From contig JBDRBF010000002.1 in assembly GCA_043822925.1 (NCBI GenBank), positions 14,562-78,561 on the forward strand: a DNA stretch of 64,000 nt, written 5' to 3'. The notes beneath the pieces were generated by a model that was not told where the DNA came from, ran no database searches, and was given only the letters and a program-made list of their open reading frames with translations. The position numbers were made by a program, and so were the translations under genes. The first letter of the stretch is position 1, and every line of letters begins with the position of its first letter. Shown here piece by piece: positions 6,884 through 56,698 of the stretch. Source of the DNA: a bacterium (GTDB taxonomy: Bacteria; Babelota; Babeliae; Babelales; RVW-14).

Positions 6884-6930
6884 CCTGGATTTTGAGCCTT
6901 ATCTCCCCCCCCCGACTTTATCTGGGGTAG
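6879..6930 (+). repeat. Possible degenerate palindromic element copy carrying a C9 tract
   Basis: GTCATCCTGGA...ATCTGGGGTAGG. The GGATGAC terminus on the minus strand contains the ATG of the acyl-CoA ligase gene. Confidence 0.35.
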
Positions 6931-6934
6931 GTTT

Positions 6935-7171
6935 TTATCCTACTTTTTTAATTTCTTCTTCTTGATCAATAAATTCGATTTCGATTGCACTGACAGGGCA
7001 CATGAGCGCCGCTTCGATTATCTTATCTTCGTTTTGTGCTATCGGTGCATTCTTTTTTACCTGAGCAACTTGTTTTATTTCAAAAATGTCAGGAGCGATC
7101 ATGTGGCAAGAGCCACATGATACGCAACCTGGAACTATTTTGACATTTTTGATGGTTGGTTTAGCAGCCAT
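6935..7171 (-). CDS. Small single-cluster ferredoxin
   Basis: CVSCGSC...CP cysteine pattern; 78 aa. Confidence 0.75.
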   Translation of the reverse strand: MAAKPTIKNVKIVPGCVSCGSCHMIAPDIFEIKQVAQVKKNAPIAQNEDKIIEAALMCPVSAIEIEFIDQEEEIKKVG

Positions 7172-7182
7172 TATTTTTTTTT

Positions 7183-7214
7183 GTCATCCTACGAAGCTTT
7201 ATGCAAAGTAGGAT
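7183..7214 (+). repeat. Short palindromic element (ATCCTAC variant)
   Basis: GTCATCCTACGAAGCTTTATGCAAAGTAGGAT. Close relative at 60256-60288. Confidence 0.6.
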
Positions 7215-7222
7215 ACAAATCC

Positions 7223-7936
7223 TTATTTTTTTGGTTTAGGTTTGTCAGCTGGTTTTTTGCTTGAAGCTGGGGTGAAAATATTCTTGTTGCCTTTTGTAGC
7301 TGGTATTTTATCTTCATCTTCGTCATCATCTTCTTCGTCTTCGCAACCCTCACAACCATCACAGCCGTCGCATTTTTCATCGTCGCAAAGCATGTTTTGG
7401 AAGTTTGCCAAGTCTTCGTCGCTGATGTCTTCATCTTCATGTTCGCTGAGTAATGCTTCAAGAAACAGTTTAACCTGTTTAGTATCGCCTTCATTGATAG
7501 ATGCCTTAATATCGCTGACCATTTCAATTAAAGCTTTTTTTGAAGCGTCATAGTCTTGATTGATTCTCGTTTTGAATTCTTTTGTTTCTGGCAATTCTTC
7601 TTCGTCATCAATGATTGCTGCAAGAAGTTCTTTTGCTTTTTTAGCATCTTTTACTTGTTTGATTTCAGCAAGAGCTTTAACTTGGTCATCCAAGAATTCA
7701 ATATCACTTTCTACTTCTTCGGTAAACTGTTGAGCATGACTGGTAAGCATTTCATGAATTTCTTCTAAGAGTTCTTTTGCATCTGCGCTTTGTGTTTGTT
7801 TTATCGTTGAATTAAGAAAAAGAAGCAGTTCAGAAAAAATAGCTTGAGTCTCATCTTTTGCTTTATGCTGTGCGTGCAATAAATAATCGGTCTGTTCCAT
7901 AAGCATTTCTAATCGTGACACGTGAAAACCTTTCAT
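7223..7936 (-). CDS. Acidic helical hypothetical protein with a CDGCDGCEGC tail
   Basis: Long ORF with E/D/K-rich helical composition; C-terminal CDDEKCDGCDGCEGCEDEEDDDEDEDK followed by a basic tail. Confidence 0.5.
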   Translation of the reverse strand: MKGFHVSRLEMLMEQTDYLLHAQHKAKDETQAIFSELLLFLNSTIKQTQSADAKELLEEIHEMLTSHAQQFTEEVESDIEFLDDQVKALAEIKQVKDAKKAKELLAAIIDDEEELPETKEFKTRINQDYDASKKALIEMVSDIKASINEGDTKQVKLFLEALLSEHEDEDISDEDLANFQNMLCDDEKCDGCDGCEGCEDEEDDDEDEDKIPATKGNKNIFTPASSKKPADKPKPKK

Positions 7937-8084
7937 GTAATTTTTCTCTTAGTCATTAATAAAAGAGAATAACGTAATATATGGGACTCAGGAAATACCT
8001 GTATGATAATAGCGTACTAGAAAAACGATTTCGCCACAAGAGGGCCTTGTGATATTGTGCTAAATCAAGAACCCACGTGTTTGT

Positions 8085-8117
8085 CATAATAGAAAAGGCA
8101 CGTATAAAACGTGCCTT
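8085..8117 (-). terminator. Rho-independent terminator candidate for the 8151-8426 gene
   Basis: 8-bp stem AAGGCACG/CGTGCCTT with a 7-nt loop, then TTTTCTATT on the minus strand. Confidence 0.45.
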
Positions 8118-8150
8118 CTAAAGTTTATTTGAAAATTTATTAAAGTAAGA

Positions 8151-8426
8151 TTATTCGTCTTCTGTGTCTGACATTTCGTCTGTGTCATCAGACATATCTT
8201 CTTCATCTGCCATTTCTTCTGTATCGTCTGATACTTTGCCGACGACTTCATCAGATTCATCAGATACTTTGTCTACTTCTTCAGTTTCTTCGCCCGTTGC
8301 TGACATTTCGTCTGTATCATCAGAAACTACGCCGATTTCTTCTTCTTCATTAGCCAGTACGATTGATGGGGTTACGCTGAAAACGAGAAAACCAGCAAGG
8401 GCAGCGATCAAAAGCTTTTTGTTCAT
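8151..8426 (-). CDS. Small acidic repeat protein with signal peptide
   Basis: Signal peptide MNKKLLIAALAGFLVFSVTPSIVLA, AAGGAG SD upstream, VSD(D/E)(T/S)(D/E)E(M/V) repeats, terminator downstream. Confidence 0.5.
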   Translation of the reverse strand: MNKKLLIAALAGFLVFSVTPSIVLANEEEEIGVVSDDTDEMSATGEETEEVDKVSDESDEVVGKVSDDTEEMADEEDMSDDTDEMSDTEDE

Positions 8427-8560
8427 CTTTTCTCCTTAAAACAACAAGAACATACGTTTTTTGTCGACAAGAATACGATCTAAAACTGATCGTAATTTGT
8501 TTTTAGTCTTTTGTCAAAATAAAACAGAGCCTAAAAAATACCCTTTGCAATATTATCATA

Positions 8561-8669
8561 GAGGCCATGGATTTTGCCACATTGCCCCATGGCCTCTTTG
8601 TGTTTGTGTTGCTAATTTATCTTGATTTCTAGAACTTGACCAACGCGCCTGCATGCATATTAGATTCGC
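8561..8669. repeat. Left copy of a ~105-bp direct duplication flanking the Y1-transposase cassette
   Basis: Hairpin GAGGCCATGG...CCATGGCCTC plus CTCTTTGTGTTTGTGTTGCTAATTTATCTTGATTT plus CTAGAACTTGACCAACGCGCCTGCATGCATAT. Matches 9501-9560 plus 9624-9666 almost exactly outside the hairpin. Confidence 0.8.
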
Positions 8670-8670
8670 C
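8629..8670 (-). pseudogene. Relic copy of the last 13 codons plus stop of the porin-like gene
   Basis: The reverse complement reads GESNMHAGALVKF*, versus RESDMHAGALVKF* at the true 3' end (9624-9665). No ORF continues upstream of it. Confidence 0.6.
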
Positions 8671-8894
8671 CCATTATCCCGGGGTCTCGCAGAGCTCGTG
8701 CCCGGGCTACAAAAAGCACAAGGTTACACCTTGTTTATGGAGTTTTTATATTGCCAGGGCTTGTTGGGTGCCAATTTAAAAATTGGTTTTTATTGCAAAA
8801 GCGTTGATCTGTTAGCATATGTTGTATTCGTTCGGGCTTTGTGTTAGCTTTTGTTTTTGTTCAATAATTTTATATATTTTTTATTTGGTGGCTT

Positions 8895-9326
8895 ATGAGT
8901 GATACATATTCAAGCTTATATTTTCACTGTGTTTGGAGTACTCAAAATCGATTTCCATCTCTTACTTCACCATTTGATGTTAAAGCGTATGGATTTATTG
9001 GAAGCATGGTAAATCGTGAAGGCGGCAAAATTCTTGCTATTGGTGGGATGCCAGATCATGTACATCTTCTTTTTTCAATAAAACCGTCAGATTCGGTTGC
9101 GCGTATGATGCGTTATGTAAAAGGGGGATCATCAAAGTTGTTGAAAGATTCACATATAAATATGAAATATTTTGCATGGCAAAAAGGGTATGGGGTTTTT
9201 TCGGTAAGCAGGTCAAATATTGATGTGGTTGCTCGATATATTAAAAATCAGGAAATTCATCATAAAGAACGTTCTTCTGAATCTGAATTTGCCATGCTAT
9301 TAAAATTGCATGACATAAAAATCTAG
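8895..9326 (+). CDS. tnpA: Y1 (HUH) transposase, IS200-like / REP-associated tyrosine transposase-like
   Basis: YFHCVWSTQNR, HUH motif DHVHLL, catalytic Tyr context WQKGYG; 143 aa. Confidence 0.8.
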   Translation: MSDTYSSLYFHCVWSTQNRFPSLTSPFDVKAYGFIGSMVNREGGKILAIGGMPDHVHLLFSIKPSDSVARMMRYVKGGSSKLLKDSHINMKYFAWQKGYGVFSVSRSNIDVVARYIKNQEIHHKERSSESEFAMLLKLHDIKI

Positions 9327-9388
9327 GCCAAGCTTAGGGATTTTCGTATAAATTTGCCGTTTGGTATTTTTTAATAAAATGGCATTAA

Positions 9389-9413
9389 ACAAGCCGTATG
9401 GCTTGTGTTTTTT
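9389..9413 (+). terminator. Rho-independent terminator of tnpA
   Basis: ACAAGCC-GTAT-GGCTTGT followed by GTTTTTT. Confidence 0.6.
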
Positions 9414-9500
9414 GTAGCCCGGGCACGAGAAGAGCTTTAGCTCTGCGAGACCCCGGGATTATAATCAACCCCCGCGACCTCGAATTTCCCATTAAATCAA

Positions 9501-9666
9501 AGAGGCCACGGTTTTGCCCCGCGGCCTCTTTGTGTTTGTGTTGCTAATTTATCTTGATTTGTCATCCCAGACTTCGCGCTCACCCTGAGCTTGTCGAAGG
9601 GGCTGGGATCTAGGTCAATTGTTCTAGAACTTGACCAACGCGCCTGCATGCATATCAGATTCGCGA
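9501..9666. repeat. Right copy of the ~105-bp direct duplication, interrupted by a palindromic element
   Basis: Same sequence as 8561-8669, but with 9561-9623 inserted between CTTGATTT and CTAGAAC. Includes the hairpin AGAGGCCACGG...CCGCGGCCTCT, which is the likely terminator of the porin gene. Confidence 0.8.
9561..9610 (+). repeat. Palindromic element with a nested GCTCACCCTGAGCTTGTCGAAG module
   Basis: GTCATCCCAGACTTCGCGCTCACCCTGAGCTTGTCGAAGGGGCTGGGATC, 14 nt after the porin stop codon. Confidence 0.8.
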
Positions 9667-11570
9667 GGCATATTTTGTCCTGCGAATGTGTATGTACCGC
9701 CGACATAGAGGTTCATGTATTTATTTGCTTTCCAGTTGCTTTCAAAGAACACTCTGTGTGCAACAGCTTCTGTGTTTGCTTCTGCAAGTTTGTTGTCTAA
9801 AGGCATTTCATAGTCAACAAATTGAGAACCTTTGTTTGTTAAAGGATCTTTGTTTGTTTTCAAGATAAGTTTTCCAGCTGCATCTGCCCATGCTTTGCCT
9901 AAAGCATGATTTGTTGCGAAAGATTTCTTGAAGTTAATTGTTTCTTCCGTCTTGTAGTAAATTTGATACCCGATTGTTGTTGCAAGGTCTTCAGTCTTTG
10001 GATGATAGAATGTTGCATCTATCTTACCAATGAAGTAACCCCAATCAACATCTGCATCAACTGATGGACCAAAGTTTTTGATTTTTGATCCTTTGAATAC
10101 TGCAAGGCGATGTTCTGTATCTTCAAGTACGAAAGAGTAAGAAGCTTCTGCTTTAAGATTCATCCAATCAAAAGCTGCCCAGCCAATGTTACCACCAAGT
10201 TTAATTTCAAAGTGGTTGCTGTTGCCAAGTTGTTGAGTAAATGGATTGTTGAACATTTTGTCTGAGCCGCCTGTAGGCAAGCGTAGGCCAGCAAAAACTT
10301 CGCCGCGCCAGTTGTTATTGAATGTATGTTCGTAGAATGCATCAAGATCGATATCGCCAAGGCCTGTGCGTTGATTTGTTGCCATAACGAAGCCAGCGTT
10401 ATCTTTCATGAATTCTTCAACGTTGTATCTGTAAACGTTTAAGAGATCATCGACGATTTTAATATCACCGTCTTTTGTAGGTCTTGTGTCAGAACCTAAG
10501 TGAACAGATGAAAGCCATAATTCATTGAAGTTTGGATCTTCATTTATTTTTGTATAGTTATGGGCAGCATCGTTGAGAAACACATAACCTTGATTTTGTT
10601 CTAGGCTTTCAAAACCAGATGTAGGCAACGCTTTAAGTGCTCCATAAGGGGCTTTCCAGAGATCAGTTCCACATGCTACAATACCAGCTTGTGCTTCCCA
10701 TTGTGTAGAATCAGTAACTGGGTTTGGTTTTACCGTGACGCCTGTTGGGGCTCCAAATGGAGGGAGTTTTCCAGGTTCTCCTTTTATGACGACCCAACTA
10801 ATTAAGTTTCCTGTTTCTGCGTTAAGATTATCTCCGGAAAATTGGAAATCGTGTATTCCTGATCCTTTTACAGCGACGGTTCCATCTGCTAAATAAAGAA
10901 GCGGAACTATTTGACCCTGGTCATTAAGGTATAAAGTATTGTCGAGCAATTGGAGTTTGTAGCGTGAGATGTTCTCAAATGCTTTAGGGCTTTGATGAGT
11001 AGGAGGAGCGACGACAGGATTACCGTCTGTGGCAACCATGCGCGTTGCATCGCCCTTGATAATGGCGTTTTGTAGGCCAAGCGCTGCATCTTCGCCGTTA
11101 TCATCTCTTTCCATACGAACTGTTTTGAATGGTACAGTTGCTCTTAATCCAACACGGCCCTTGTTATGCCACACAGGATATTCAAAACGGCCACCAAGTG
11201 TTGCGCCATATTCAGTGTAGCTGACACGTGGTGCGATTTTTGTTGTAGCTAAATATGGAGATCTGTTTTCTGTGAAATACTTTATTGGATTTGCATCTTC
11301 AAAAGCTTCTGCGAGTGTGAATTCTGATTTGCCAAAAATTAAAGATGTCAGGGGGTGTGTGTCTGTGCCGTGTTTTAAGAACGCTTTGTTTGCTGTGCGG
11401 TAATGGCCGGTAGAAAACATATCAAAAGTGCATTTGTTTTTTTTCTTGTACAAGTCATAACGGAGCGGTCCGTCTTTTGAGATGAAAGGAGCTCTTGTTT
11501 CACTCGCCATTGCTGCAGAAGATACAGCAAGTACGGTAAAGAGCGTTGTGCTTAAAATTTTTCTTATCAT
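9624..11570 (-). CDS. Putative outer-membrane beta-barrel (porin-like) protein
   Basis: Signal peptide MIRKILSTTLFTVLAVSSAAMA, alternating beta-strand composition, C-terminal ...GALVKF aromatic terminus. Confidence 0.6.
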   Translation of the reverse strand: MIRKILSTTLFTVLAVSSAAMASETRAPFISKDGPLRYDLYKKKNKCTFDMFSTGHYRTANKAFLKHGTDTHPLTSLIFGKSEFTLAEAFEDANPIKYFTENRSPYLATTKIAPRVSYTEYGATLGGRFEYPVWHNKGRVGLRATVPFKTVRMERDDNGEDAALGLQNAIIKGDATRMVATDGNPVVAPPTHQSPKAFENISRYKLQLLDNTLYLNDQGQIVPLLYLADGTVAVKGSGIHDFQFSGDNLNAETGNLISWVVIKGEPGKLPPFGAPTGVTVKPNPVTDSTQWEAQAGIVACGTDLWKAPYGALKALPTSGFESLEQNQGYVFLNDAAHNYTKINEDPNFNELWLSSVHLGSDTRPTKDGDIKIVDDLLNVYRYNVEEFMKDNAGFVMATNQRTGLGDIDLDAFYEHTFNNNWRGEVFAGLRLPTGGSDKMFNNPFTQQLGNSNHFEIKLGGNIGWAAFDWMNLKAEASYSFVLEDTEHRLAVFKGSKIKNFGPSVDADVDWGYFIGKIDATFYHPKTEDLATTIGYQIYYKTEETINFKKSFATNHALGKAWADAAGKLILKTNKDPLTNKGSQFVDYEMPLDNKLAEANTEAVAHRVFFESNWKANKYMNLYVGGTYTFAGQNMPRESDMHAGALVKF

Positions 11571-11691
11571 TCTCTTACCTCTCTTGAATTTGAGTTAGGT
11601 AAACTCTTGTTATGTACGTGTGTTATTTTTTCACGGGGGCTTTAGGTGAGGGCGTAGCTTAAAACTACGCCCTTATAGTTGTTGCGTTTAG

Positions 11692-14600
11692 TTATGCTAC
11701 TTCCATTGTACCAAATGCTGATGGGTCAATATCCAAGTCACTACGTGCAATGGCAGTTCCAACATTAAGAGGGGTTCTGACGGAACCTTCTTTAATGACT
11801 GGGCTGTCAAGACGTCTGATGACGTTCATTGTTGCAGGATATACAAGAGCGTTAACGTCAGCATTTACAAAGCCGGCAATTACATCAAAGCCTTCTGTTC
11901 CCCAACATACTTTTTTACGTGGTTGATCTTTAATTGTTTTAAATGAAAGCAGATTAAAGAATTGATCAAGAGTTGAGTATGTGAAGACTTTTCCACCATA
12001 GTATGCGCCATTATATATGTAGTTTGTTGCGGTGCTCAAGTCTGCAGCTATTGCTCTGTCAATAATAAGTGCTGCTGATGGAAGTATTGAGTAAGCTTCA
12101 CCGTTGGCGAGTGCGCCAGCGTAATCCCAAACATTGGCATTATAAATTGTGCCAAGGGTTGGAACTTTCATGATGTTACCACCACCACGAACTGTCGTGT
12201 ATAGTGGGCCGTTTACTTTAACGACGTAGTTGTCTGTGCCGTTACGTGATGAAGGTCCAACTGCCATTAAAGAACCGTTAGCGCTTGAACCATCTGCAAT
12301 GTTGTTGTGTTCAAATTGGCCACTCTTAAGATCAAGCGTTATTTGACCAACGTTATAAAGTGCTTGGATTGTCCAAGGGCTCTTAGCTGCTGTTACTGGA
12401 GCATCTACTCCGGTGAACATTGGCAAGCCATCTTCACCAAGAACTGCTTTACCATCTGCATCAACTACTGGGTTACCAGAAACGTTTACTGTGCCGGCTG
12501 CTGTTGCTGCGCCGTTGATCTTGTTGAACTTGTCGATAACTCCTGCGCCAAGGCCAAAAAAGCCAAGACGGTCGATGTGGAACTTGCTGTTGATATCGCC
12601 AAGGATAAGGCTGAAGTTAACTGCAGCATCTGTGATTTCTACTGGGTTACCAACTTGGAATGCACCGCCAGATACTGTAGGTGTACCGATGTTAAATGCT
12701 GATTCACGTTGTAAGCTGATGGTAACATCTGTTATTGGTGTTTGTGTATCAGACTGTACGCCAACAAGTACGTTGCCATTAACCATAATTTGGGCATCTT
12801 TGTTTGTCCAAATTTGGCCTTTACCAACGATCTTGATACGTTCTACGTCTGCTTTGGCTGCTGTCTCGAAAGCTTGAGTTACTGTTTGAGCTTCGCTGCC
12901 TTCTTGGAATATTAATTCAGATTCGTCATTGAAGTAAAGAACGACGCCGCCAACTACGCTTGATGCAGCTGGGAATCTGATTGTTGCGCCTGCTTCAATA
13001 ACAAGGCTGACCTTGCCACCGAATGCAATTTCTTGTCTGTTTGTTGCTTGACCAAAGCTTGATAAATCAAGTTCGCCGCCTGCTGGGATAACGATTTTGT
13101 GTGGCATATCTGAGCGGAACGTGATTCTGTTTGCTTTTGTATCAGCGCTGAACATTGTTGAACAGACAATAGCGTTCTTATCTGCGATTATTATATCAGA
13201 ATTCAAGTCTATGGTTCCATCACCAAGCGGAACTATTTGGACATGGTCTTGACCCAAGATTGTCCAAGAGTTACCACCTGAGTGTGAGTCCCAATCACGG
13301 CTACCAAGGCCAATACGTCCGCCGTATTCAAGGAACAATACTGCGTTATCGCCTTCACCAACAAAGTGATCAGTTGGCATATCGACTTGTCTGGATGCTG
13401 AAGTAAATTCACGTACGTGTCCTGGTGCTGGTAATATTTCATCGCCTGAAATATCAAGTTGGAACTTGTTGGATTGTGTTGCACCAGCAACGCGCATTTG
13501 CGCAATATCATCACCGGAACCGATGTACAGAAGTGATGTTGGTTTTGCGATAGGAGCTGTTATGTTTTGGGTGGCACGTGTTGTTGGGAATGAGAAGCGA
13601 CGGTCACCTGGAGCAAATTCTCTGTTGTCGCCTGCTCTGTTGAACCAATTAATAACAACTTCTTCTGCGCCTGTTTGATCAAACTTAGCGGTCAGACCTG
13701 TGCGAGTATCGTTATTATTAAAGCTTAAGCGTACATAACCATCTGTTTCATCAGATCTGTAAGCTAACATTTCTGGTGTGAAGCCGTATGGTTGTACTGC
13801 TGCATTGACCAAGAATTTAACTTGATCTGTTGGAAGGTCTACGCGGCCAGAGTATTCTACAACTCTATTTGTTCCATCGTAGTTGTAGTCGTTCCATGCT
13901 TTTTGAGCGATTATGGTTTCAACGATTGCTGTGTTTGTATCCGTGATGGTTATTTTTCCACCATGGTTAACGTACACTTTACCGCTTTCATCCATGCGTT
14001 CAATTGGCGTTGCTGTGCAGTTACCATTTCTGTCAAATCCACTAAAGACCATGTATTTGCCATCAATGATTAAGCGTGCTTGTTTTACCCCTGCAACAGC
14101 GTCAAGGTCAAAGCGGTTTGCTGCATCTTCGCTTAAAACTTCTTTGATTAACTTGTCGCCATAAAGTGTATTTTCGTATGGATAGCCTTCAGCACTGTCT
14201 CCTGAAGTTGTTGGCCAGCCGATTGCGATGTTTGCTGCACCTTTTTCCATGGTGGACATCAAGATGAGGTGATGTGCGCGTTGGGCTGCGTACTCTTCGT
14301 CTGTAAAGCCATTAGTTGGAAATTGGTTGCCATTTTGTAATGACACGTCAATTACGCTGGCGGTAATGCCTACAGCTGGGATGAAGCCATGTTTTCTGAA
14401 GATATTAAGATATGAACCTTCAGTTACCCAGTTTGTTGAATTATCAGCCATCATGTTTTTGTATGAACCAAACATGAGTGCGCGACCAAAGCCCTTGAAG
14501 TCTGTGTCGTTAGTGTTGCCATGGTCAAAGAATTTAATAACTGATTGGTTACCTGGACTTACTTCAGGCGTAACAGCAACAGCTCCGGTGATGTCGCGAA

Positions 14601-17256
14601 CGACAAAACGGATACCGGAGGTGTTAAGTGATTCTTGAAGTTGAAGCATAGATGTATAAAGTCTTACTTCTGGGAAGCGGTAACGGTCTGGATCTACTCC
14701 ATCATAGGTGATACGTTTATCTGCAAAGTACATGCGTTCGCCACCAAGCATTGCTGGATATGAGCTTGCTGGAACTCCGTCGATCATTTTTGTTACGTCG
14801 CTATGGACAATGTTCGTATCATAGAACGATGCATGGTTGTTAAAGAACATTGCAGGCGAGTTGTAACGCATGTATGAGTATTCTGGTAGAGCTGAAATTG
14901 TAAGTGGACGGGTTGCTACTTCATTGCCCATATAATCGAGCAAGATAGTTGGCATGTTTACAATACCAGCTTTATCAACTATTGAATCTGTTGCATAAGA
15001 ACGAGGGGCAAGTGTTGTTGGATCAATAATTGTTGTGTTTGATACTGATGTTACATCCAAGAGTCCTTCAACTTCAACAACATGTTGTCCGTCTTGGGTT
15101 GTATGGTCGCCGTCTTTTAGGCGGTATCCATCAAAGTTTGTGTCATCAACCATAAGACCTAATTGATAATCAAAATCTGGATCATCAATTGGGTTCATAG
15201 GATAGATAAGTTCACCTGGAATTTCTCCATCAGGATATGGTATATAGTCTTTCCAGAAGTTGTAGATGTAGCCATATGTTGATGAACCGGAGCAACGGAA
15301 GAGAGCTGTACCGTTGCCGCGCAGTGCTACTTGGGCATGACGATTAAGCAATGCAGGGTTTGCTGCGGTAAAAGAACTAAGTGATAATGATGGGTCAATA
15401 CGATCAAACAGATTTGCATCAAGACCGTCAACAACAAAAGCTGCTGGGTTCTTTTTCATGATTGTTGCAAGTGATGTTAATTCTGGAAGATCTGCAGTTT
15501 CGTTAAAGTCGTTTTGAGCCAAAAGATCGGTACGGTTTATGCTGCCGGCGACATAATCAAAGAAGGTATTGTGGTAAATATCAAGTTTACCGTTTACGCC
15601 GAGAACAAATCCGTTACGAACGATTGTTTGATAGTTTGCTGGATTTGAATAACACCAGTTGTAACCGTAGAGTTCTGAAGGTTCTCTACCTGTAGAGCGT
15701 TTTTGCGCAATTGTTTCTTCGCCTGGGGTTGTATTGAAATAATCCAAATAAGGGTCTGAAGCACGTTTGGTTACTGATTGTGCATCGTTAATAACCAAGA
15801 GACCGCGTCTTGTTGTTGGGTCTACGACGTAAGGCTTTGTTGTAGTATTATTGTATGTAACATCGTCGACTGTACGTAAGAAAGCTTGTCCACCAGCTGG
15901 ATATGAATAATCAAGTGATTCGCGAATTTCTGCTGGGGTATAACCTGCAACATAGTGACCTTGAACAATGACTGCTCCATCGTTAAATGGGAAACGTGCG
16001 GTCATTTGTTCGTATTCTGCGTCATCTATGGTGTAGCCGTCTTGGAAGCCAAGAAGATATGCACCAAGAATAAAGAGAACCATGCGACCGGAACCGGTAT
16101 TTGAAGGATCAAATGCCAAAGACGCAAAGTTGTTTAAATCTGGAACAAATTCAGGGTCTTCTGTTTTTGGAAGGTGCTTGATACCGGTATCGTCATTTGA
16201 TACATAGGTGATTATTGAGTTGTTACCAACGACAACGATGTTTCTTTGGTCTGTGCCTGTTGCATGTTGGAAGACAACTTTGTTAATACCGTTGGTTACG
16301 TCAGCTTCTGTTTGTTCCATGGTTATGAAGACTTTTGTACCGGCCATAGAGTTACCTACGCCTGTAAATGAGTCTCCATCTGTCATGTCAACATAGCTTG
16401 TTCCATCGATCTCGCCTAAGAATTTGATTGCGACGCCGCTTGCCATTTTGAAAATTGTTTGACCTTTACCTGCGAAGGTTAAGATCATATCAATTGCTGG
16501 CAGTGGAGCTCTTGAAGGATTAAGAATTTTTGTTCCATGTATAGTTTTGCTACGTGTTGTTAAGCCTGGGTTGATGCCAGAGAACTCAAGTGAGTTATTA
16601 ACGTTGACGGTAATATTTTTACCTTCTGCAACGTTAAAGTGAACTTGAGCATGTCCCCAGCCGTCTAAATCTGGATTTGCTGGATATGGATTTACATAAG
16701 GCATGATGTACGTTGTTGGATTGTCAATATCGGCCACGACGTTAATCGTCATATTTGCGTCTATTGCTTCCAGCGTTACATCACCATCAATCTTGAGGGG
16801 GCAAGATATTGTATGGCCATCACCATCAAGTACAGGTGTACTTTCTTCGTCATGGTCAGGATACAAAACACCGTAAATGTTTAACGTGTTGTCTATAGTA
16901 GTAGCTGCAAATTCTGTGTTAGATTCAATGATGACTTTTTTACCACGTTTTGCAGATGTTTTAGGTTTTGCTTTGGTGAAGATTGCTTTACTGTCGTTTA
17001 ATGTTTTTGAAACGACGTTAAAGCTTGAGGCTATATTGATTTTTGAATAGTCTCTTAAAACACCTTCTGTGGTGTTATAGATATAGTCGCTTTGTGCATA
17101 GGTAGCAATGTCGCTCGATGTGTTGGCATAATCTATGCCGTCTACTGTTGTGACTTCTGATCCAACGGGCTTCCATTCAAATGCTTGTGCGTTGAATGAA
17201 GCAAGCCCGAAGACTGCTGCCAAAAGAAGCAGTTTTCTGAACTGTTTTGATATCAT
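11692..17256 (-). CDS. Giant hypothetical protein with signal peptide (1,854 codons)
   Basis: Uninterrupted ORF. ATG 17256 is preceded by AGGGGAG and gives the signal peptide MISKQFRKLLLLAAVFGLASFNAQA. The track start at 17340 is TTG and would bury the signal peptide. Confidence 0.7.
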   Translation of the reverse strand: MISKQFRKLLLLAAVFGLASFNAQAFEWKPVGSEVTTVDGIDYANTSSDIATYAQSDYIYNTTEGVLRDYSKINIASSFNVVSKTLNDSKAIFTKAKPKTSAKRGKKVIIESNTEFAATTIDNTLNIYGVLYPDHDEESTPVLDGDGHTISCPLKIDGDVTLEAIDANMTINVVADIDNPTTYIMPYVNPYPANPDLDGWGHAQVHFNVAEGKNITVNVNNSLEFSGINPGLTTRSKTIHGTKILNPSRAPLPAIDMILTFAGKGQTIFKMASGVAIKFLGEIDGTSYVDMTDGDSFTGVGNSMAGTKVFITMEQTEADVTNGINKVVFQHATGTDQRNIVVVGNNSIITYVSNDDTGIKHLPKTEDPEFVPDLNNFASLAFDPSNTGSGRMVLFILGAYLLGFQDGYTIDDAEYEQMTARFPFNDGAVIVQGHYVAGYTPAEIRESLDYSYPAGGQAFLRTVDDVTYNNTTTKPYVVDPTTRRGLLVINDAQSVTKRASDPYLDYFNTTPGEETIAQKRSTGREPSELYGYNWCYSNPANYQTIVRNGFVLGVNGKLDIYHNTFFDYVAGSINRTDLLAQNDFNETADLPELTSLATIMKKNPAAFVVDGLDANLFDRIDPSLSLSSFTAANPALLNRHAQVALRGNGTALFRCSGSSTYGYIYNFWKDYIPYPDGEIPGELIYPMNPIDDPDFDYQLGLMVDDTNFDGYRLKDGDHTTQDGQHVVEVEGLLDVTSVSNTTIIDPTTLAPRSYATDSIVDKAGIVNMPTILLDYMGNEVATRPLTISALPEYSYMRYNSPAMFFNNHASFYDTNIVHSDVTKMIDGVPASSYPAMLGGERMYFADKRITYDGVDPDRYRFPEVRLYTSMLQLQESLNTSGIRFVVRDITGAVAVTPEVSPGNQSVIKFFDHGNTNDTDFKGFGRALMFGSYKNMMADNSTNWVTEGSYLNIFRKHGFIPAVGITASVIDVSLQNGNQFPTNGFTDEEYAAQRAHHLILMSTMEKGAANIAIGWPTTSGDSAEGYPYENTLYGDKLIKEVLSEDAANRFDLDAVAGVKQARLIIDGKYMVFSGFDRNGNCTATPIERMDESGKVYVNHGGKITITDTNTAIVETIIAQKAWNDYNYDGTNRVVEYSGRVDLPTDQVKFLVNAAVQPYGFTPEMLAYRSDETDGYVRLSFNNNDTRTGLTAKFDQTGAEEVVINWFNRAGDNREFAPGDRRFSFPTTRATQNITAPIAKPTSLLYIGSGDDIAQMRVAGATQSNKFQLDISGDEILPAPGHVREFTSASRQVDMPTDHFVGEGDNAVLFLEYGGRIGLGSRDWDSHSGGNSWTILGQDHVQIVPLGDGTIDLNSDIIIADKNAIVCSTMFSADTKANRITFRSDMPHKIVIPAGGELDLSSFGQATNRQEIAFGGKVSLVIEAGATIRFPAASSVVGGVVLYFNDESELIFQEGSEAQTVTQAFETAAKADVERIKIVGKGQIWTNKDAQIMVNGNVLVGVQSDTQTPITDVTISLQRESAFNIGTPTVSGGAFQVGNPVEITDAAVNFSLILGDINSKFHIDRLGFFGLGAGVIDKFNKINGAATAAGTVNVSGNPVVDADGKAVLGEDGLPMFTGVDAPVTAAKSPWTIQALYNVGQITLDLKSGQFEHNNIADGSSANGSLMAVGPSSRNGTDNYVVKVNGPLYTTVRGGGNIMKVPTLGTIYNANVWDYAGALANGEAYSILPSAALIIDRAIAADLSTATNYIYNGAYYGGKVFTYSTLDQFFNLLSFKTIKDQPRKKVCWGTEGFDVIAGFVNADVNALVYPATMNVIRRLDSPVIKEGSVRTPLNVGTAIARSDLDIDPSAFGTMEVA

Positions 17257-17791
17257 AGCTTCTCCCCTTTCAGGATAAAACTGAGTCCACCATACAATAT
17301 GGTTCGTTTTTGTTAGCACTTTGGTTAATTTCTCGACCAACGGCCTCCTTTCTTAGATTACGAAAAATTTTTTAATTTTTTTTTCGTTGGATTTGATTAA
17401 ATAATTAATACGTACAGATCAAATTTTTTTGTGGTTTTTTGTGGCTTGAAGACGTTTAAGATACTTTCCATGGAAAACTCTCCTTTTTTTGGTTGGTTTT
17501 CTCGGTCTTTACTCTCTTTTGCGTTTATTTTCTTTGTCCGCCTAAGCTTTAGGCTCGGCTGGGAGCTCATCGCAGGATTTTTTCTAGATTCTATATATCA
17601 TGTTTAACATGTCCATTTGTTGTTTAAATGTCAAGATCAAACTTACAGCCTGTAATGACCAGCAAAATCCAGATCTTTTTTTAGACAAACTTTATAAAAC
17701 ATCTAAACTTTTTAGAATAAAGATACTTGGACAGGGTAGAATTTTCATCAATCAAAAGTAAAGAGTTTTTTTTAACCAACGAAAAGATTAT

Positions 17792-25962: not shown

Positions 25963-27057
25963 TTAGCGTTGTTTTTGATCTAAAAAAATAGAAAATGGTT
26001 CGTTCTGAAATATAAATTTATAGGCTGCATGGCATAGGGGCATGTGTAGGTTGTCGCGTTCAATTAGTTCGCGCAGAGAGAGCAGGGTATTAAGCCCTTC
26101 GGGAAGCGTCTTAAAATTGAGCGATAAATTTTCTATAGATCGGTCTTGGGCGAGCAAGCGTCCAGCTTTGAGGTTTTTGCCGAGAGTCCCAGTGCAGCTT
26201 AAAATTAAATCGCCCAAGCCTGATAGCCCGTAGGCTGTTTGCGGGTCGCCACCGAGATGTTTGATCAAGTAAGCAATTTCACGCAGGCCCTGAGTTATTA
26301 AATAAGAAGCGGTATTTTCTTTATGTCCAGATCCGTAGGCGATGCCTATAATTAGCGCAAAAACATTTTTGATGGCGCCACATATTTGTGTGCCTATTGG
26401 GTCTTGTGACGGGAACGTCTTAAAATAATTATTATTAAGAAGCGTATCTAATTGGGTAATAAGTTTAGAATTTGTGCTTGCGATAGTTGCTGTTGTAAAT
26501 TGTCTGTCGGCCAGTTCTTTGGCGAAACTTGGGCCACCAAGTACGGCATAATTTATTGGTGCTTTTAATACGTCTTGAATTATTTGGGATGGGAGTAAGC
26601 GTGTTTTTTGTTCGATGCCCTTACTCAGGATTACCCAGGATGGGGCGCGCCCTTCGACAGGCTCCCAGGCTTCGCGTGAAGCTTCGCCGGGCACGGCAGG
26701 GTGAGTGCTCATGCTGAGTTTATCGAAGCATGAAGGGCAGGCCAGTCTGGGATGACGACATGTAGGGTCGGTTGCTAAAACTTGTTCAATAATTTGGCGT
26801 AAAAATTTGACGGGAATAGCTTCGAAAATTAAGCTTGCGCCGGTTATGGCTTCTTCGAGATTTGTTGTTGCGTTAATTTTTGGGCTCAGCGTAATATCAG
26901 GTAAATACTGGCTGTTTGTGTGTTGCTTGGTTATTTCGTAGGTAATTTCTGGTTCATGGCACCATAGGGTTACATGGTGGTCGTTGTGGGCCAGGAGCGT
27001 CGCGATAGCTGTTCCCCAAGCGCCTGCGCCAAGTATTGTTATTTTTTGTTCAGACAT
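25963..27057 (-). CDS. gpsA: NAD(P)H-dependent glycerol-3-phosphate dehydrogenase with a 42-codon repeat-derived insertion
   Basis: ITILGAGAWGTAIA Rossmann motif, SKGIE, GLGDLILSCTG. Residues 100-141 (CRHPRLACPSCFDKLSMSTHPAVPGEASREAWEPVEGRAPSW) are encoded by the element. Confidence 0.85.
   Translation of the reverse strand: MSEQKITILGAGAWGTAIATLLAHNDHHVTLWCHEPEITYEITKQHTNSQYLPDITLSPKINATTNLEEAITGASLIFEAIPVKFLRQIIEQVLATDPTCRHPRLACPSCFDKLSMSTHPAVPGEASREAWEPVEGRAPSWVILSKGIEQKTRLLPSQIIQDVLKAPINYAVLGGPSFAKELADRQFTTATIASTNSKLITQLDTLLNNNYFKTFPSQDPIGTQICGAIKNVFALIIGIAYGSGHKENTASYLITQGLREIAYLIKHLGGDPQTAYGLSGLGDLILSCTGTLGKNLKAGRLLAQDRSIENLSLNFKTLPEGLNTLLSLRELIERDNLHMPLCHAAYKFIFQNEPFSIFLDQKQR
26635..26760 (-). 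repeat. Composite palindromic element (three nested modules) inside gpsA
   Basis: Minus strand reads TGTCGTCATCCCAGACTGGCCTGCCC...GCTTCGATAAACTCAGCATGAGC...GTGCCCGGCGAAGCTTCACGCGAAGCCTGGG...CCATCCTGG. Length is 126 nt. Confidence 0.8.
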
Positions 27058-28987: not shown

Positions 28988-28996
28988 CGCTGACTT

Positions 28997-29055
28997 GTCA
29001 TCCTGGACTTGCCTGCCATTCGGAGCCACTTGGGCGTAGTAGAGATCCGGGATCC
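28997..29055 (+). repeat. Palindromic element just after the HAD gene stop
   Basis: GTCATCCTGGACTTGCCTGCCATTCGGAGCCACTTGGGCGTAGTAGAGATCCGGGATCC. Confidence 0.75.
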
Positions 29056-29114: not shown

Positions 29115-29190
29115 GAGTTTATGGGGCTGTTAAGAAATAAGATTTATATATTAAAAAACGCTCACCCTGAGCTTGTCGAAGGGTTCTCCG

Positions 29191-54356: not shown

Positions 54357-55520
54357 ATGTTGCATATACCCCTTTCAGGGATAAAAAAGATCGAAGAAGT
54401 AGCTGGAAGCAGTAATGAGTATGTTTCTTTATCTCAGGGGTCAATAAAAGTTGGCGGGATTCCCCAACAAATAAAAGATTATATTCAAGGTCTCATGGCT
54501 ACTGATAAAACTGATTATTATGGCAGCTGCTGGGGTCTGAAGCTTTTGCGAGAAAAATTGTCGACCGTTCTTTCTGCTCGTTACGGGCAAAATATTACAG
54601 CCGGTCAAATATTGCCGACACATGGTTGTATTGGTGGCCTAACTCTTTTGTATATGACGTTACTTGATGCGGGCGATGAAGTTATTATTCCAGAGCCTGC
54701 TTATCCTGCTTATACCACACTTGCAGGTGCTGCTCGTGCTAAACCTGTTTTTGTTTCGTGCGTAAAGGCGGCGAGTAAGTGTTCTCGTCTTGGCTCGGTT
54801 GAATGGGAATTTGATATCGAAAAAATAAAACAAGCGACGACGTCAAAAACGAAGATGATTATTTTCTCAAACCCCTGTAATCCATTAGGGCTTGTTGTTG
54901 GTAAAACTGATTTATTAGAGCTTGTTTCTTGGTGTGAAAAGCACGGGATTTATTTAGTTATAGACGAAGCTTATGGTGATTATGTTTTTGAGGGCGAATT
55001 TTATTCTAGTCTAGAATTTATAAATAAGTCCCAGTGGGTAATTTCGGCTCACACGTTTTCAAAGAATATGGCTTTAAGTGGTTGGCGCATTGGGTACTTA
55101 GTTGTGCCTGAAAAAATTATTGCTGCACTTGCGGGTATGCAAGATGCTCTTTTAAATTGCTTAAATAACACTGCTCAATATGCTGCTATGTTTGCGCTTG
55201 ATTATCCAGAAGTAACGCGTGAATTTGCGCAAAAACTTAAGCTAAATCGTGATTTGGCTATGCAATTATTACAGCCATTAGTAGATCAGAAAATTTTTAC
55301 ATTAGGCCGTAAGCCAGTTGGTGGTTTTTATTTGTTTATTAAAACAGAGCATGAAGACTCTATGGATCTGTGCATGAGTATTTTAAATCAGGCTAAAGTG
55401 GGACTTATTCCTGGACGATCGTTTGGTCAGGCTGGAGCATCGTTTTTGCGTTTGTGTTATGCTCGTGAAACAGATGTTTTACGCGAAGGTATTAATCGTA
55501 TTTTGGGCTATTTTTTATAA
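54357..55520 (+). CDS. Class I/II PLP-dependent aminotransferase (copy 1)
   Basis: PEPAYPAY and the PLP-lysine context FSKNMALSGWRIGY. Confidence 0.85.
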   Translation: MLHIPLSGIKKIEEVAGSSNEYVSLSQGSIKVGGIPQQIKDYIQGLMATDKTDYYGSCWGLKLLREKLSTVLSARYGQNITAGQILPTHGCIGGLTLLYMTLLDAGDEVIIPEPAYPAYTTLAGAARAKPVFVSCVKAASKCSRLGSVEWEFDIEKIKQATTSKTKMIIFSNPCNPLGLVVGKTDLLELVSWCEKHGIYLVIDEAYGDYVFEGEFYSSLEFINKSQWVISAHTFSKNMALSGWRIGYLVVPEKIIAALAGMQDALLNCLNNTAQYAAMFALDYPEVTREFAQKLKLNRDLAMQLLQPLVDQKIFTLGRKPVGGFYLFIKTEHEDSMDLCMSILNQAKVGLIPGRSFGQAGASFLRLCYARETDVLREGINRILGYFL

Positions 55521-55540
55521 TAAAATAAAGGGGTAAGCCC

Positions 55541-56698
55541 ATGTTGCACATGCCTATTTCGACGATCAAAAAGATAGAAGATATTGCAGGAAATAATCCT
55601 GATTATGTTTCTTTGTCTCAGGGATCAGTAAAATTGGGTGGTGTGCCTGAAGAAATACGTGAATATGTACGGCAACAGCTTTTGACTAACAAGACTGATT
55701 ACTATCAAAGTTGTTGGGGGCTCGAGTTATATCGAGAAAAAGTTTCCCAAGTACTGACTCAGAAGTATGGGCAAGAATTTAAAGTAAGCCAAATATTACC
55801 AACACACGGGTGTCAGGGCGGCATAACACTCTTATTTATGACATTACTTGATGCTGATTCAGAAATTATTATTCCAGAGCCTGCATATCCGGCGTATACG
55901 AATATCGCACGTGTTTCGCGTGGAAATATTGTGTATGTGTCTTGTTCTCAAGATACGAGCACGTTAAATATGGTTAATTGGGATTTAGACATAGAAAAGA
56001 TCAAACAGGCAACAACGTCTAAAACAAAAGTAATTTTGTTTTCTAATCCAAGTAATCCTATGGGTATCGTTATTGGTAAACAAAAATTATTAGAATTGGT
56101 TTCTTGGTGTGAAAAGCACGGGATCTATTTAATTGTTGATGAAGCGTATCGAGAATACGTTTTTGATGGTGATTGTTATTCGAGTCTTGAGCTTGTGAAT
56201 AAATCTAAATTTGTTGTTTCTGTGCATACGTTTTCAAAAAGTATGGCTATGATTGGTTGGCGCGTTGGGTATATTGTTGCTCATGAAAAACTTATTACTA
56301 TGCTTGCTGGTATGCAAGATGCGCTTATGAATTGTCTTAATAATGCGTCACAATATGCAGCGCTTTATGCGCTTGATCATCCAGAGTTTACTCAAAAATT
56401 TTTTCAGATAATTAAAAATAATAGAGATTTGGCTATGCATGAGTTGCAGCCGCTCGTTGACCGGGGGATTTTGGCTTTTAAAAAACCAAATGGTGGGATT
56501 TTCTTGTTTCTTAAGACAAATCAGACTGATACAGCAGATTTGTGTATGGATATTTTGAATAAAGCTAAAGTGGGATTAATTCCAGGACGAGCATTTGGCC
56601 CAAGTGGTGCAGCGTCTATTCGTCTTTGTTATTCACGCGAGACAGATGTTTTGTATGAAGGCATAAGCCGTATTCTTGGTTATTTTGCACAAAAATAA
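55541..56698 (+). CDS. Class I/II PLP-dependent aminotransferase (copy 2, tandem paralog)
   Basis: PEPAYPAY and FSKSMAMIGWRVGY. Collinear with copy 1 along the full length. Confidence 0.85.
   Translation: MLHMPISTIKKIEDIAGNNPDYVSLSQGSVKLGGVPEEIREYVRQQLLTNKTDYYQSCWGLELYREKVSQVLTQKYGQEFKVSQILPTHGCQGGITLLFMTLLDADSEIIIPEPAYPAYTNIARVSRGNIVYVSCSQDTSTLNMVNWDLDIEKIKQATTSKTKVILFSNPSNPMGIVIGKQKLLELVSWCEKHGIYLIVDEAYREYVFDGDCYSSLELVNKSKFVVSVHTFSKSMAMIGWRVGYIVAHEKLITMLAGMQDALMNCLNNASQYAALYALDHPEFTQKFFQIIKNNRDLAMHELQPLVDRGILAFKKPNGGIFLFLKTNQTDTADLCMDILNKAKVGLIPGRAFGPSGAASIRLCYSRETDVLYEGISRILGYFAQK

Follow-up and report, generated by a model that had tools for sequence, protein, structure and literature searches.

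A Y1 nuclease-like gene between inverted hairpin ends, inserted at the 3' end of an outer-membrane barrel gene and bracketed by a long target duplication in a Dependentiae bacterium

How did a single, intact gene of the Y1 (HUH) nuclease/transposase type come to lie between inverted hairpins at the very end of a conserved outer-membrane barrel gene, with a copy of that gene end on each side of it? We addressed this question in a Dependentiae/Babeliales bacterium, using a 64-kb stretch of a metagenome-assembled genome (MAG; assembly GCA_043822925.1, contig JBDRBF010000002.1, positions 14,562 to 78,561), hereafter the window, in which coordinates count from the first nucleotide. The cassette is an insertion into the 3' end of the barrel gene, ~109 nt of host DNA stand in duplicate around it, and the same arrangement recurs in relatives. 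On the reading that we prefer, and that we hold to be slightly on the favourable side of even, a REPtron-like cassette entered the barrel gene 3' end and ~109 bp of target were duplicated in the same event.

The inserted segment and the duplicated gene end

Gene order in the window runs from a giant protein through the barrel, small proteins, a ferredoxin and an acyl-CoA ligase to a 420-aa protein. The same order is found in the Babeliales genome GCA_019749895.1 (giant protein, barrel, an intervening gene x, ferredoxin, acyl-CoA ligase, CNNM-domain gene), where only 173 nt follow the barrel gene, with no cassette and no Y1 gene. Because this order is conserved without the Y1 gene, the cassette is an insertion relative to it. 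The 828 nt delimited by the direct repeats (8670-9497) are missing at this syntenic site (locus L098). The parts of the locus are as follows.

8670-9497, no strand: inserted segment with subterminal inverted ends (distance to the boundary 3 nt on the left, 35 nt on the right)
9463-9497, no strand: unique 35-nt stretch that separates the right inverted end from the right target copy, with no other copy in the window
8557-8669, minus strand: left target copy, with hairpin (8557-8600), spacer (8594-8628) and a stub of 13 codons plus stop (8629-8669)
9498-9560, minus strand: right target copy, part 1, comprising the hairpin that serves the barrel gene as its functional terminator (9498-9532) and, next to it, the 35-nt spacer (9526-9560)
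9561-9623, no strand: 63-nt modular palindromic element (GTCATCCCAGACTT...CTGGGATCTAGGT) beside the stop codon, in the right copy only
9624-9664, minus strand: right target copy, part 2, the stop and final 13 codons (RESDMHAGALVKF), joined to the gene body
9624-11570, minus strand: barrel gene, encoding a 648-aa outer-membrane beta-barrel channel ("porin") conserved in Dependentiae

A gapped alignment showed that 8557-8669 repeats 9498-9560 plus 9624-9664 in direct orientation, so that the duplicated target amounts to ~109 nt, close to the ~105 bp originally proposed. A repeat finder returned the same relationship in two pieces (8582-8628 with 9514-9560, 96% identical; 8627-8669 with 9622-9664, 98%). 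The duplicated unit is made up of the terminator hairpin, a 35-nt spacer that is the same in both copies, and the end of the minus-strand barrel gene, with its stop and last 13 codons. The stub, GESNMHAGALVKF followed by the stop, matches its earlier description, with one mismatch between the copies in the coding part. The homologues of the 648-aa protein all belong to Dependentiae/Babeliales (TM6), the nearest being 49% identical. An AlphaFold model of the protein, built with 28 homologues (pLDDT 82.9), matched outer-membrane barrels, namely FapF, the COG4313 channel 4RL8 (TM-score 0.8 on the target), DcaP and OmpF. In the model, the final beta-strand of the barrel spans residues 638-647, and the 13 duplicated codons therefore encode exactly the C-terminal strand with its terminal Phe.

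Could the left fragment be the remnant of a decayed barrel paralog, the finding that was to have overturned the original prediction? A tblastn search of the window with the barrel protein gave the 12-residue stub alone. With no other barrel-like sequence to be found, this alternative is removed; the non-coding spacer and the terminator are, moreover, duplicated along with the stub. A common terminator family was likewise considered as the source of both hairpins and rejected, as the AGAGGCC...GGCCTCT pattern matches just these two places in the window. Comparison of the two hairpins shows one compensated pair (T-A to C-G), one adjoining A.C mismatch that is uncompensated, and an 8-9-nt loop indel. 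Of the paired substitutions in both arms that had been described, one pair therefore stands and the neighbouring one does not. The pattern is compatible with a maintained stem, but selection on the stem, the explanation originally offered, rests on that single compensated pair beside an uncompensated mismatch.

We examined the junctions in Logan unitigs from run SRR10605391 (k=31). Two unitigs from this run are identical to window positions 8631-9552 and 6905-8620, and the left target copy is contiguous with downstream DNA in unitig L095. Each break in the unitigs lies exactly 30 nt away from bases that differ between the copies (8661, 9521-9522 and 8589-8590), as predicted for a k=31 graph at a true near-identical duplication. 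Both inner junctions, from target copy to cassette and from cassette to target copy, lie within one unitig, which confirms that they are not an assembly artefact. The long duplication is a real target duplication. At k=31 the 38-nt identical spacer nonetheless forms a repeat node that two paths enter and two paths leave, at which both unitigs stop, and a cassette-free chromosome and a small circle of ~937 bp (the cassette plus one target copy) could have been threaded together there. We regard this assembly ambiguity as highly improbable. The MAG contig (98,839 bp) resolves the spacer as linear, the copy-specific bases are ~40 nt apart and can be spanned by larger k-mers or single reads, and a structure of the same kind was assembled independently in two samples for relatives of the gene (L090 and L091, see below).

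The junction in the left copy is free of the palindromic element, and therefore the duplication came first and the element was inserted later, in the order originally proposed. The boundary of the 63-nt element is ambiguous by a dinucleotide TT. Its family numbers at least 6 copies in the window, with 7 hits at up to 2 mismatches against 0.3 expected. This family is GC-rich and modular, with constant arms (GTCATCCCAGACTT ... CTGGGATCYARGT) and interchangeable inner modules, and its members were found at 9561-9623, 19804-19880, 20588-20660, 20693-20731, 21107-21137, 26640-26760, 28995-29030 and 29159-29184. The inner module CGCTCACCCTGAGCTTGTCGAAGGG also stands alone at 29159, and a close variant, CTGAGCCCTGTCGAAGGG, occurs in the locus of one relative of the Y1 gene (L100, ~160-180). 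Two open reading frames (19687-20553 and 25963-27057) contain copies with their frames unbroken. In the DNA polymerase III delta'-like gene the element lies at 19804-19880, and in gpsA, at ~26640-26760, it divides the Pfam N-domain match into two stretches. These copies resemble the in-frame Rickettsia palindromic elements. A further small nuclease gene, of the GIY-YIG type (101 aa, 20764-21069, Pfam E=7e-14), is enclosed by two perfect 31-nt copies of the element in inverted orientation (20698-20728 and 21107-21137), so that 20698-21137 forms a second cassette of a small nuclease gene between inverted palindromic repeats.

A separate observation concerns the barrel gene. In three Dependentiae genomes (window 9624-17340; L096 1-6917; L098 1-6902) it is always preceded by a gene for a giant protein of 1800-1970 aa without any Pfam domain. 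The barrel is structurally nearest to the FapF secretion channel and to COG4313 channels, which suggests that channel and giant substrate form a conserved pair.

The Y1 protein and its hairpin ends

Within the inserted segment, the gene and its ends are arranged as follows.

8673-8722, minus strand: left inverted end, with GTAG at 8710-8707, then a hairpin (8706-8678) with a 6-bp CCCGGG stem
8718-8734, minus strand: inner small hairpin with T-run, terminator-like, facing out of the cassette
8895-9326, plus strand: Y1 (HUH) nuclease/transposase-like gene, 143 aa, single and intact, with the motifs of TnpAY1 subclass 1.2
9389-9406, plus strand: inner small hairpin with T-run, an intrinsic-terminator-like site for the Y1 gene
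9402-9462, plus strand: right inverted end, with GTAG at 9414-9417, then a hairpin (9418-9457)

The 143-aa protein matched Pfam Y1_Tnp (E=1.3e-27) and carries no extra domain. Its HuH motif is formed by H55 and H57 and its WQ motif by residues 95-96. The catalytic tyrosine had been placed in WQKGYG; this was wrong. It is Y115 (RYIKNQEIHH), which aligns with the YIxxQ tyrosine of ISDra2 TnpA and is invariant across 26 relatives together with H55, H57, W95, Q96, Q119 and H123. The protein scored 82.5 bits against the NCBIfam model transpos_IS200 (cutoff 55) and 31 bits against REP_Tyr_transpos (cutoff 80), the model for transposases associated with repetitive extragenic palindromic (REP) sequences, the RAYTs. 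A PDB search with a profile of the 26 relatives matched the TnpA structures of ISDra2, IS200 and IS608, with no match to E. coli TnpA-REP. The tyrosine motif is of the form Y---Q--HH (YIKNQEIHH), not the class 2 form Y---NP.

In subclass 1.2 as described by Quentin et al. 2018 (PMC6006769), the proteins have ~148 aa with a short conserved C-terminal tail, share DH[IV]H, WQ and Y---Q--HH, are encoded by low-copy genes without tnpB or other features of insertion sequences (IS), are tabulated as "REP: no" and come mostly from Cyanobacteria and Bacteroidetes. With DHVH, WQ, YIKNQEIHH and 143 aa, the protein studied here fits this subclass by its motifs, closer to IS200 than to RAYTs, and is not a canonical RAYT. 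The RAYT-like character that had been proposed thus held for the layout, with its inverted GTAG-footed hairpins, but not for the protein, and the placement between RAYTs and IS200, left for later by the original prediction, falls on the IS200-proximal side. The host, a Dependentiae bacterium, lies outside the tabulated range of the subclass, and the hairpin ends are a difference from its published description, not a ground for exclusion. Among the groups of Bertels et al. 2017 (PMC5581495) is a "RAYT-like IS200 Group 3", in which duplicates are absent and flanking 16-mers are moderately abundant; by our own reckoning this group is probably the same clade.

The repeat finder paired 8695-8722 with 9402-9429 (28 nt, 96%) and 8673-8696 with 9439-9462 (24 nt, 96%), which bore out the inverted ends of 34 and 45 nt first noticed (8678-8711 and 9413-9457) and extended them to arms of 50 nt on the left and 61 nt on the right. 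Both halves are exact, with just two occurrences in 64 kb against 0.00-0.01 expected by chance. Folding resolved each arm into two hairpins, an inner small one, which scores in both arms as an intrinsic terminator directed out of the cassette, and an outer GC-rich one whose CCCGGG stem directly follows GTAG; the right arm is longer by 11 nt because its hairpin at 9418-9457 has an extra inner stem-loop.

A REP family was sought at several levels. Neither half of the cassette ends has an additional copy in the window, so that the search for other copies of the 34-nt end sequence yielded none here. GT[AG]G-footed hairpins showed no excess in 64 kb (12 observed, 17.7 in shuffles), and no dispersed REP family served by the Y1 enzyme is visible within that length. 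In a collection of genomes from 185,579 species, the source MAG not among them, the 19-mer from the end gave 7 hits, attributable to chance and in GC-rich genomes. Kinship of the ends with other GC-rich palindromic modules of the window (for instance CGTGCCCGGCGTAGCC at 20607) was considered and discarded, the shared 9-mer being within chance by a hand estimate. The gene itself has one copy in the window and no tnpB. In a collection of 5.8 billion proteins its product is unique, forming a cluster of one member with the nearest relative 58% identical, and an exact-protein look-up returned a single match, a 922-bp unitig. A look for phage carriage found no relatives in IMG/VR.

The score against transpos_IS200 and the nearest solved structures, those of IS200/IS605 TnpAs, would favour an ordinary insertion sequence of the IS200/IS605 type. 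Members such as IS608 and ISDra2 are the nearest in sequence and share HUH and single-tyrosine chemistry on single-stranded hairpin DNA, as well as hairpins that are subterminal and not terminal. Their hairpins are, however, on the same strand at both ends, they are multi-copy and often carry tnpB, and they make no target duplication. The cassette has inverted ends, a 109-bp duplication, no other copy in the window, no near-identical copy among the 5.8 billion proteins and no tnpB. An ordinary IS200/IS605-type element, or the stub of a decayed barrel paralog dealt with above, is accordingly a very poor candidate.

REPtrons (Nunvar 2010; Ton-Hoang 2012, PMC3333891; Corneloup 2021, PMC8266576) come closer in layout: they too consist of a single Y1 gene between inverted hairpins with a 5' GTAG foot, and there as here the Y1 gene is apparently single-copy. 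They differ in that the protein studied here lies outside class 2 and that no dispersed REP population is seen in the 64 kb. The literature reports "no evidence of tnpAREP mobility" for REPtrons (PMC8266576), whereas the cassette carries an insertion footprint. TIRtrons, or TIRYT elements (Di Nocera et al. 2013, PMC3733652), likewise combine a Y1 gene with long terminal inverted repeats. They occur where GTAG REPs are not abundant in the genome, and their repeats sometimes form small families (PMC3733652). Most TIRYTs belong to subclass 2.1, with helix-turn-helix C-terminal domains and a GGGGWSAS motif in the repeat (PMC6006769). The 143-aa protein has no such extra domain, and GGGGWSAS is absent from the cassette arms, which do hold a GTAG hairpin.

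Hairpin ends and duplications in relatives

We fetched 80 metagenomic loci of Y1 relatives with 33-46% identity, 72 of which were analysable for flanking inverted repeats. In 60 of the 72, the best inverted match between the flanks beat every shuffle (z 5.8 to 92). In the arms of the relatives, a small hairpin is followed by a spacer and then by a larger GC hairpin with a [G/A/T]TAG foot before it; under a strict rule, 20-22 of 70 flanks carried [G/A/T]TAG-footed hairpins, compared with 4 of 70 after shuffling. Extra copies of the module lay nearby in 20 of 42 loci, as they do in REPtrons. AT-rich relatives (L089, 58% identical in protein; L100, 47%; L090 and L092, 40-41%) have the same order as the window, with gene, small hairpin, GTAG and big hairpin. 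An invariant TAGCCC head is common to the window and these relatives (40-58% protein identity), the rest of the arm having diverged, and stem changes are compensated (CCCGGG/CCCGGG in the window, CCCAGG/CCT(C)GGG in L089). GTAG-footed inverted hairpin ends are the rule in the subclass 1.2 clade, a result that goes beyond the literature we found.

We then looked for direct repeats in the sequence that flanks the two inverted ends on the outside, and many relatives have them. For scoring, sequence resembling the end modules was masked, and pairs with one flank displaced by 350 nt served as a control. Among bracketing flank pairs, 9 of 44 scored at least 50, compared with 2 of 102 displaced controls (Fisher p=3.6e-4). 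In L075, 38 nt are duplicated (36/38 identical), comprising the last ~12 codons and stop of rmuC. In L047 the duplication covers 115 nt (82% identical) and the last ~36 codons of an amidohydrolase gene. In L090, 50 of 50 nt are identical across an overlapping Fic stop and Ham1 start, so that Fic ends in the left copy and Ham1 begins in the right one. In L009 a 115-nt intergenic spacer between two heptosyltransferase genes is probably duplicated. The intact gene lies 3' of the Y1 gene in all 4 of the 4 gene-end cases, the window included, which are too few for a rule. Two relatives on long contigs, L101 and L104, had hairpin inverted repeats but no host-derived duplication. In several unrelated genomes, long, variable and gene-preserving target duplications flank the cassette, again beyond the literature we found. 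The original idea of an unusual insertion or repair route is strengthened by the same footprint in relatives.

Further features of these loci deserve mention. L090 (5382-6117) and L092 (5776-6567) come from one metagenome and hold Y1 paralogs 72% identical with related ~100-nt inverted ends, whose central hairpin is "double-footed" (ATAG...CTAC). They occupy different loci, the Fic-Ham1 junction and a site beside mevalonate-pathway kinases. Their hosts are probably Dependentiae, because a homologue of the barrel gene occurs in the same metagenome. In the AT-rich loci L053 (1-1265) and L066 (156-1088) the Y1 gene is flanked by direct, not inverted, repeats of 290 nt and 226 nt, 91-94% identical, which are arrays of small hairpins; in L066 a Cas5d gene follows the cassette.

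Elsewhere in the window, a gene for a 91-aa signal-peptide protein of acidic repeats (8151-8426; D/E/S/T-rich, with internal 39-nt repeats) has the cassette on one side and the next conserved gene on the other; the syntenic locus L098 contains nothing that corresponds to it. Two neighbouring paralogous genes at 54357-56698 (387 and 385 aa), whose DNA is 72-75% identical over most of its length, indicate a tandem gene duplication. Rfam models detected two tRNAs in the window and nothing else.

Routes of insertion and their meaning

Classical Y1 transposition proceeds via a single-stranded circle and makes no duplication, and to our knowledge a long, variable target duplication has not been reported for Y1 enzymes. 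How, then, could the order of target copy, cassette, target copy and gene have arisen? The simplest single event that gives this order is an insertion coupled to target duplication. In our model, the GTAG/TAGCCC-footed hairpins would be the sites recognised by the enzyme, since hairpin order and the TAGCCC head are conserved among relatives. Two single-strand breaks placed far apart (38-115 bp) on opposite strands of the target, followed by joining of the cassette and fill-in, would then duplicate the interval; equivalently, nick-primed synthesis might switch template onto the cassette and back, as for Rep of adeno-associated virus (AAV). Either route would explain the long and variable length of the duplications (38-115 bp). 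Copies landing in gene ends would survive because the duplication repairs the gene. At the barrel locus, last strand, stop and terminator all remain with the barrel gene, and a terminator still lies upstream of the next gene, so that an insertion 13 codons from the end was tolerated; the other side of the cassette holds a dead stub and a second terminator ahead of the next gene.

Parallels for such a route exist outside the family. The DDE elements IS1549 and IS1634 generate long, variable direct repeats of 8-514 bp on insertion, with no mechanistic model (PMC2266710). For AAV, whose Rep is a HUH nuclease and whose terminal repeats form hairpins, integration is described as partly duplicating the target (Henckaerts 2009, as cited in PMC2900306). 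The DDE enzymes are unrelated, and AAV has a eukaryotic host and a Rep with a helicase domain; we therefore offer both as possible analogies for the insertion route, not as evidence of family membership.

The same order could also result from integration of the Campbell type, whereby a circle carrying the cassette and ~109 bp of host DNA recombined by homology at the empty site. The circle would have been imprecisely excised from a related chromosome with the cassette just downstream of the barrel terminator. A single crossover yields exactly the observed order, and circular Y1 intermediates are known in IS200/IS605 (PMC6006769). Differences between the copies would then be divergence between donor and recipient, including in L047 with its copies only 82% identical, and the unique 3-nt and 35-nt pieces between ends and repeats would be donor flank. 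This scheme requires that the donor had the same barrel gene and spacer; the 78 nt of coding sequence and spacer, however, differ by only 1 nt, while the hairpin differs strongly. The 50 nt of L090, 100% identical across an overlapping stop and start, fit a de novo duplication better. Moreover, the targets differ from relative to relative, and each case would need its own pre-existing neighbouring insertion. We consider a Campbell-type origin unlikely.

A secondary local rearrangement is a further alternative: replication slippage, template switching, or tandem duplication with loss of one cassette copy, promoted by the inverted repeats or REP-like hairpins. REP sequences are reported join-points of tandem duplications. 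The flanks of several relatives (L033, L035 and L073 as well as L053 and L066 with their long direct repeats) are arrays of hairpin modules in both orientations, and are therefore duplication-prone. At least two events, including a precise loss, would nevertheless be needed for the observed order, and it would be left unexplained why the duplicated host segment so often holds exactly the end of the neighbouring gene. This origin seems to us distinctly unlikely.

Several observations weigh against an insertion that duplicates its target in the same event. Of the 4 substitutions between the copies, 3 fall in the hairpin, a higher divergence than in the remaining 78 nt (p~0.04 by hand calculation), which is odd for a single simultaneous duplication. 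The gap between inverted end and duplication varies (3/35, 35/29, 72/37 and 146/5 nt), which counts against the model because precise, end-defined transposition would not predict such variation. We found no common motif at the duplication boundaries; a candidate "GAT/ATC" near the repeat start was weak, in 3 of 4 cases, too few to claim. The GTAG hairpins point outward in the window and in the AT-rich relatives and inward, facing the gene, in most GC-rich relatives. Clean host-derived duplications number only 4-5 cases, the direct repeats of L053, L066, L033, L035 and L073 being hairpin modules and not target duplications. Finally, there is no second copy of the cassette or its ends for this genome, and footprints alone speak for mobility.

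RAYT-type genes have been treated as immobile and domesticated, and the spread of these genes and their hairpins is an open question (PMC8266576). The cassette, from the clade that connects IS200 with the RAYTs, is caught in a clear insertion, with a footprint that recurs in unrelated genomes. A long, variable duplication that preserves the gene it hits is not predicted by current Y1 chemistry. If the footprint arises at insertion, it would provide a testable handle on how these cassettes move, and would also revise the published view of subclass 1.2 as being without hairpin repeats. A broader proposition, which we advance tentatively and regard as doubtful in its full extent, is that Y1 cassettes of subclass 1.2 may act autonomously and insert into double-stranded DNA, by either of the two routes above, leaving variable duplications of 40-115 bp, typically at gene ends. 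If true, the cassette would bear the first insertion footprint known from a RAYT-like "domesticated" Y1 gene, and bacterial HUH enzymes would have a new transposition mode.

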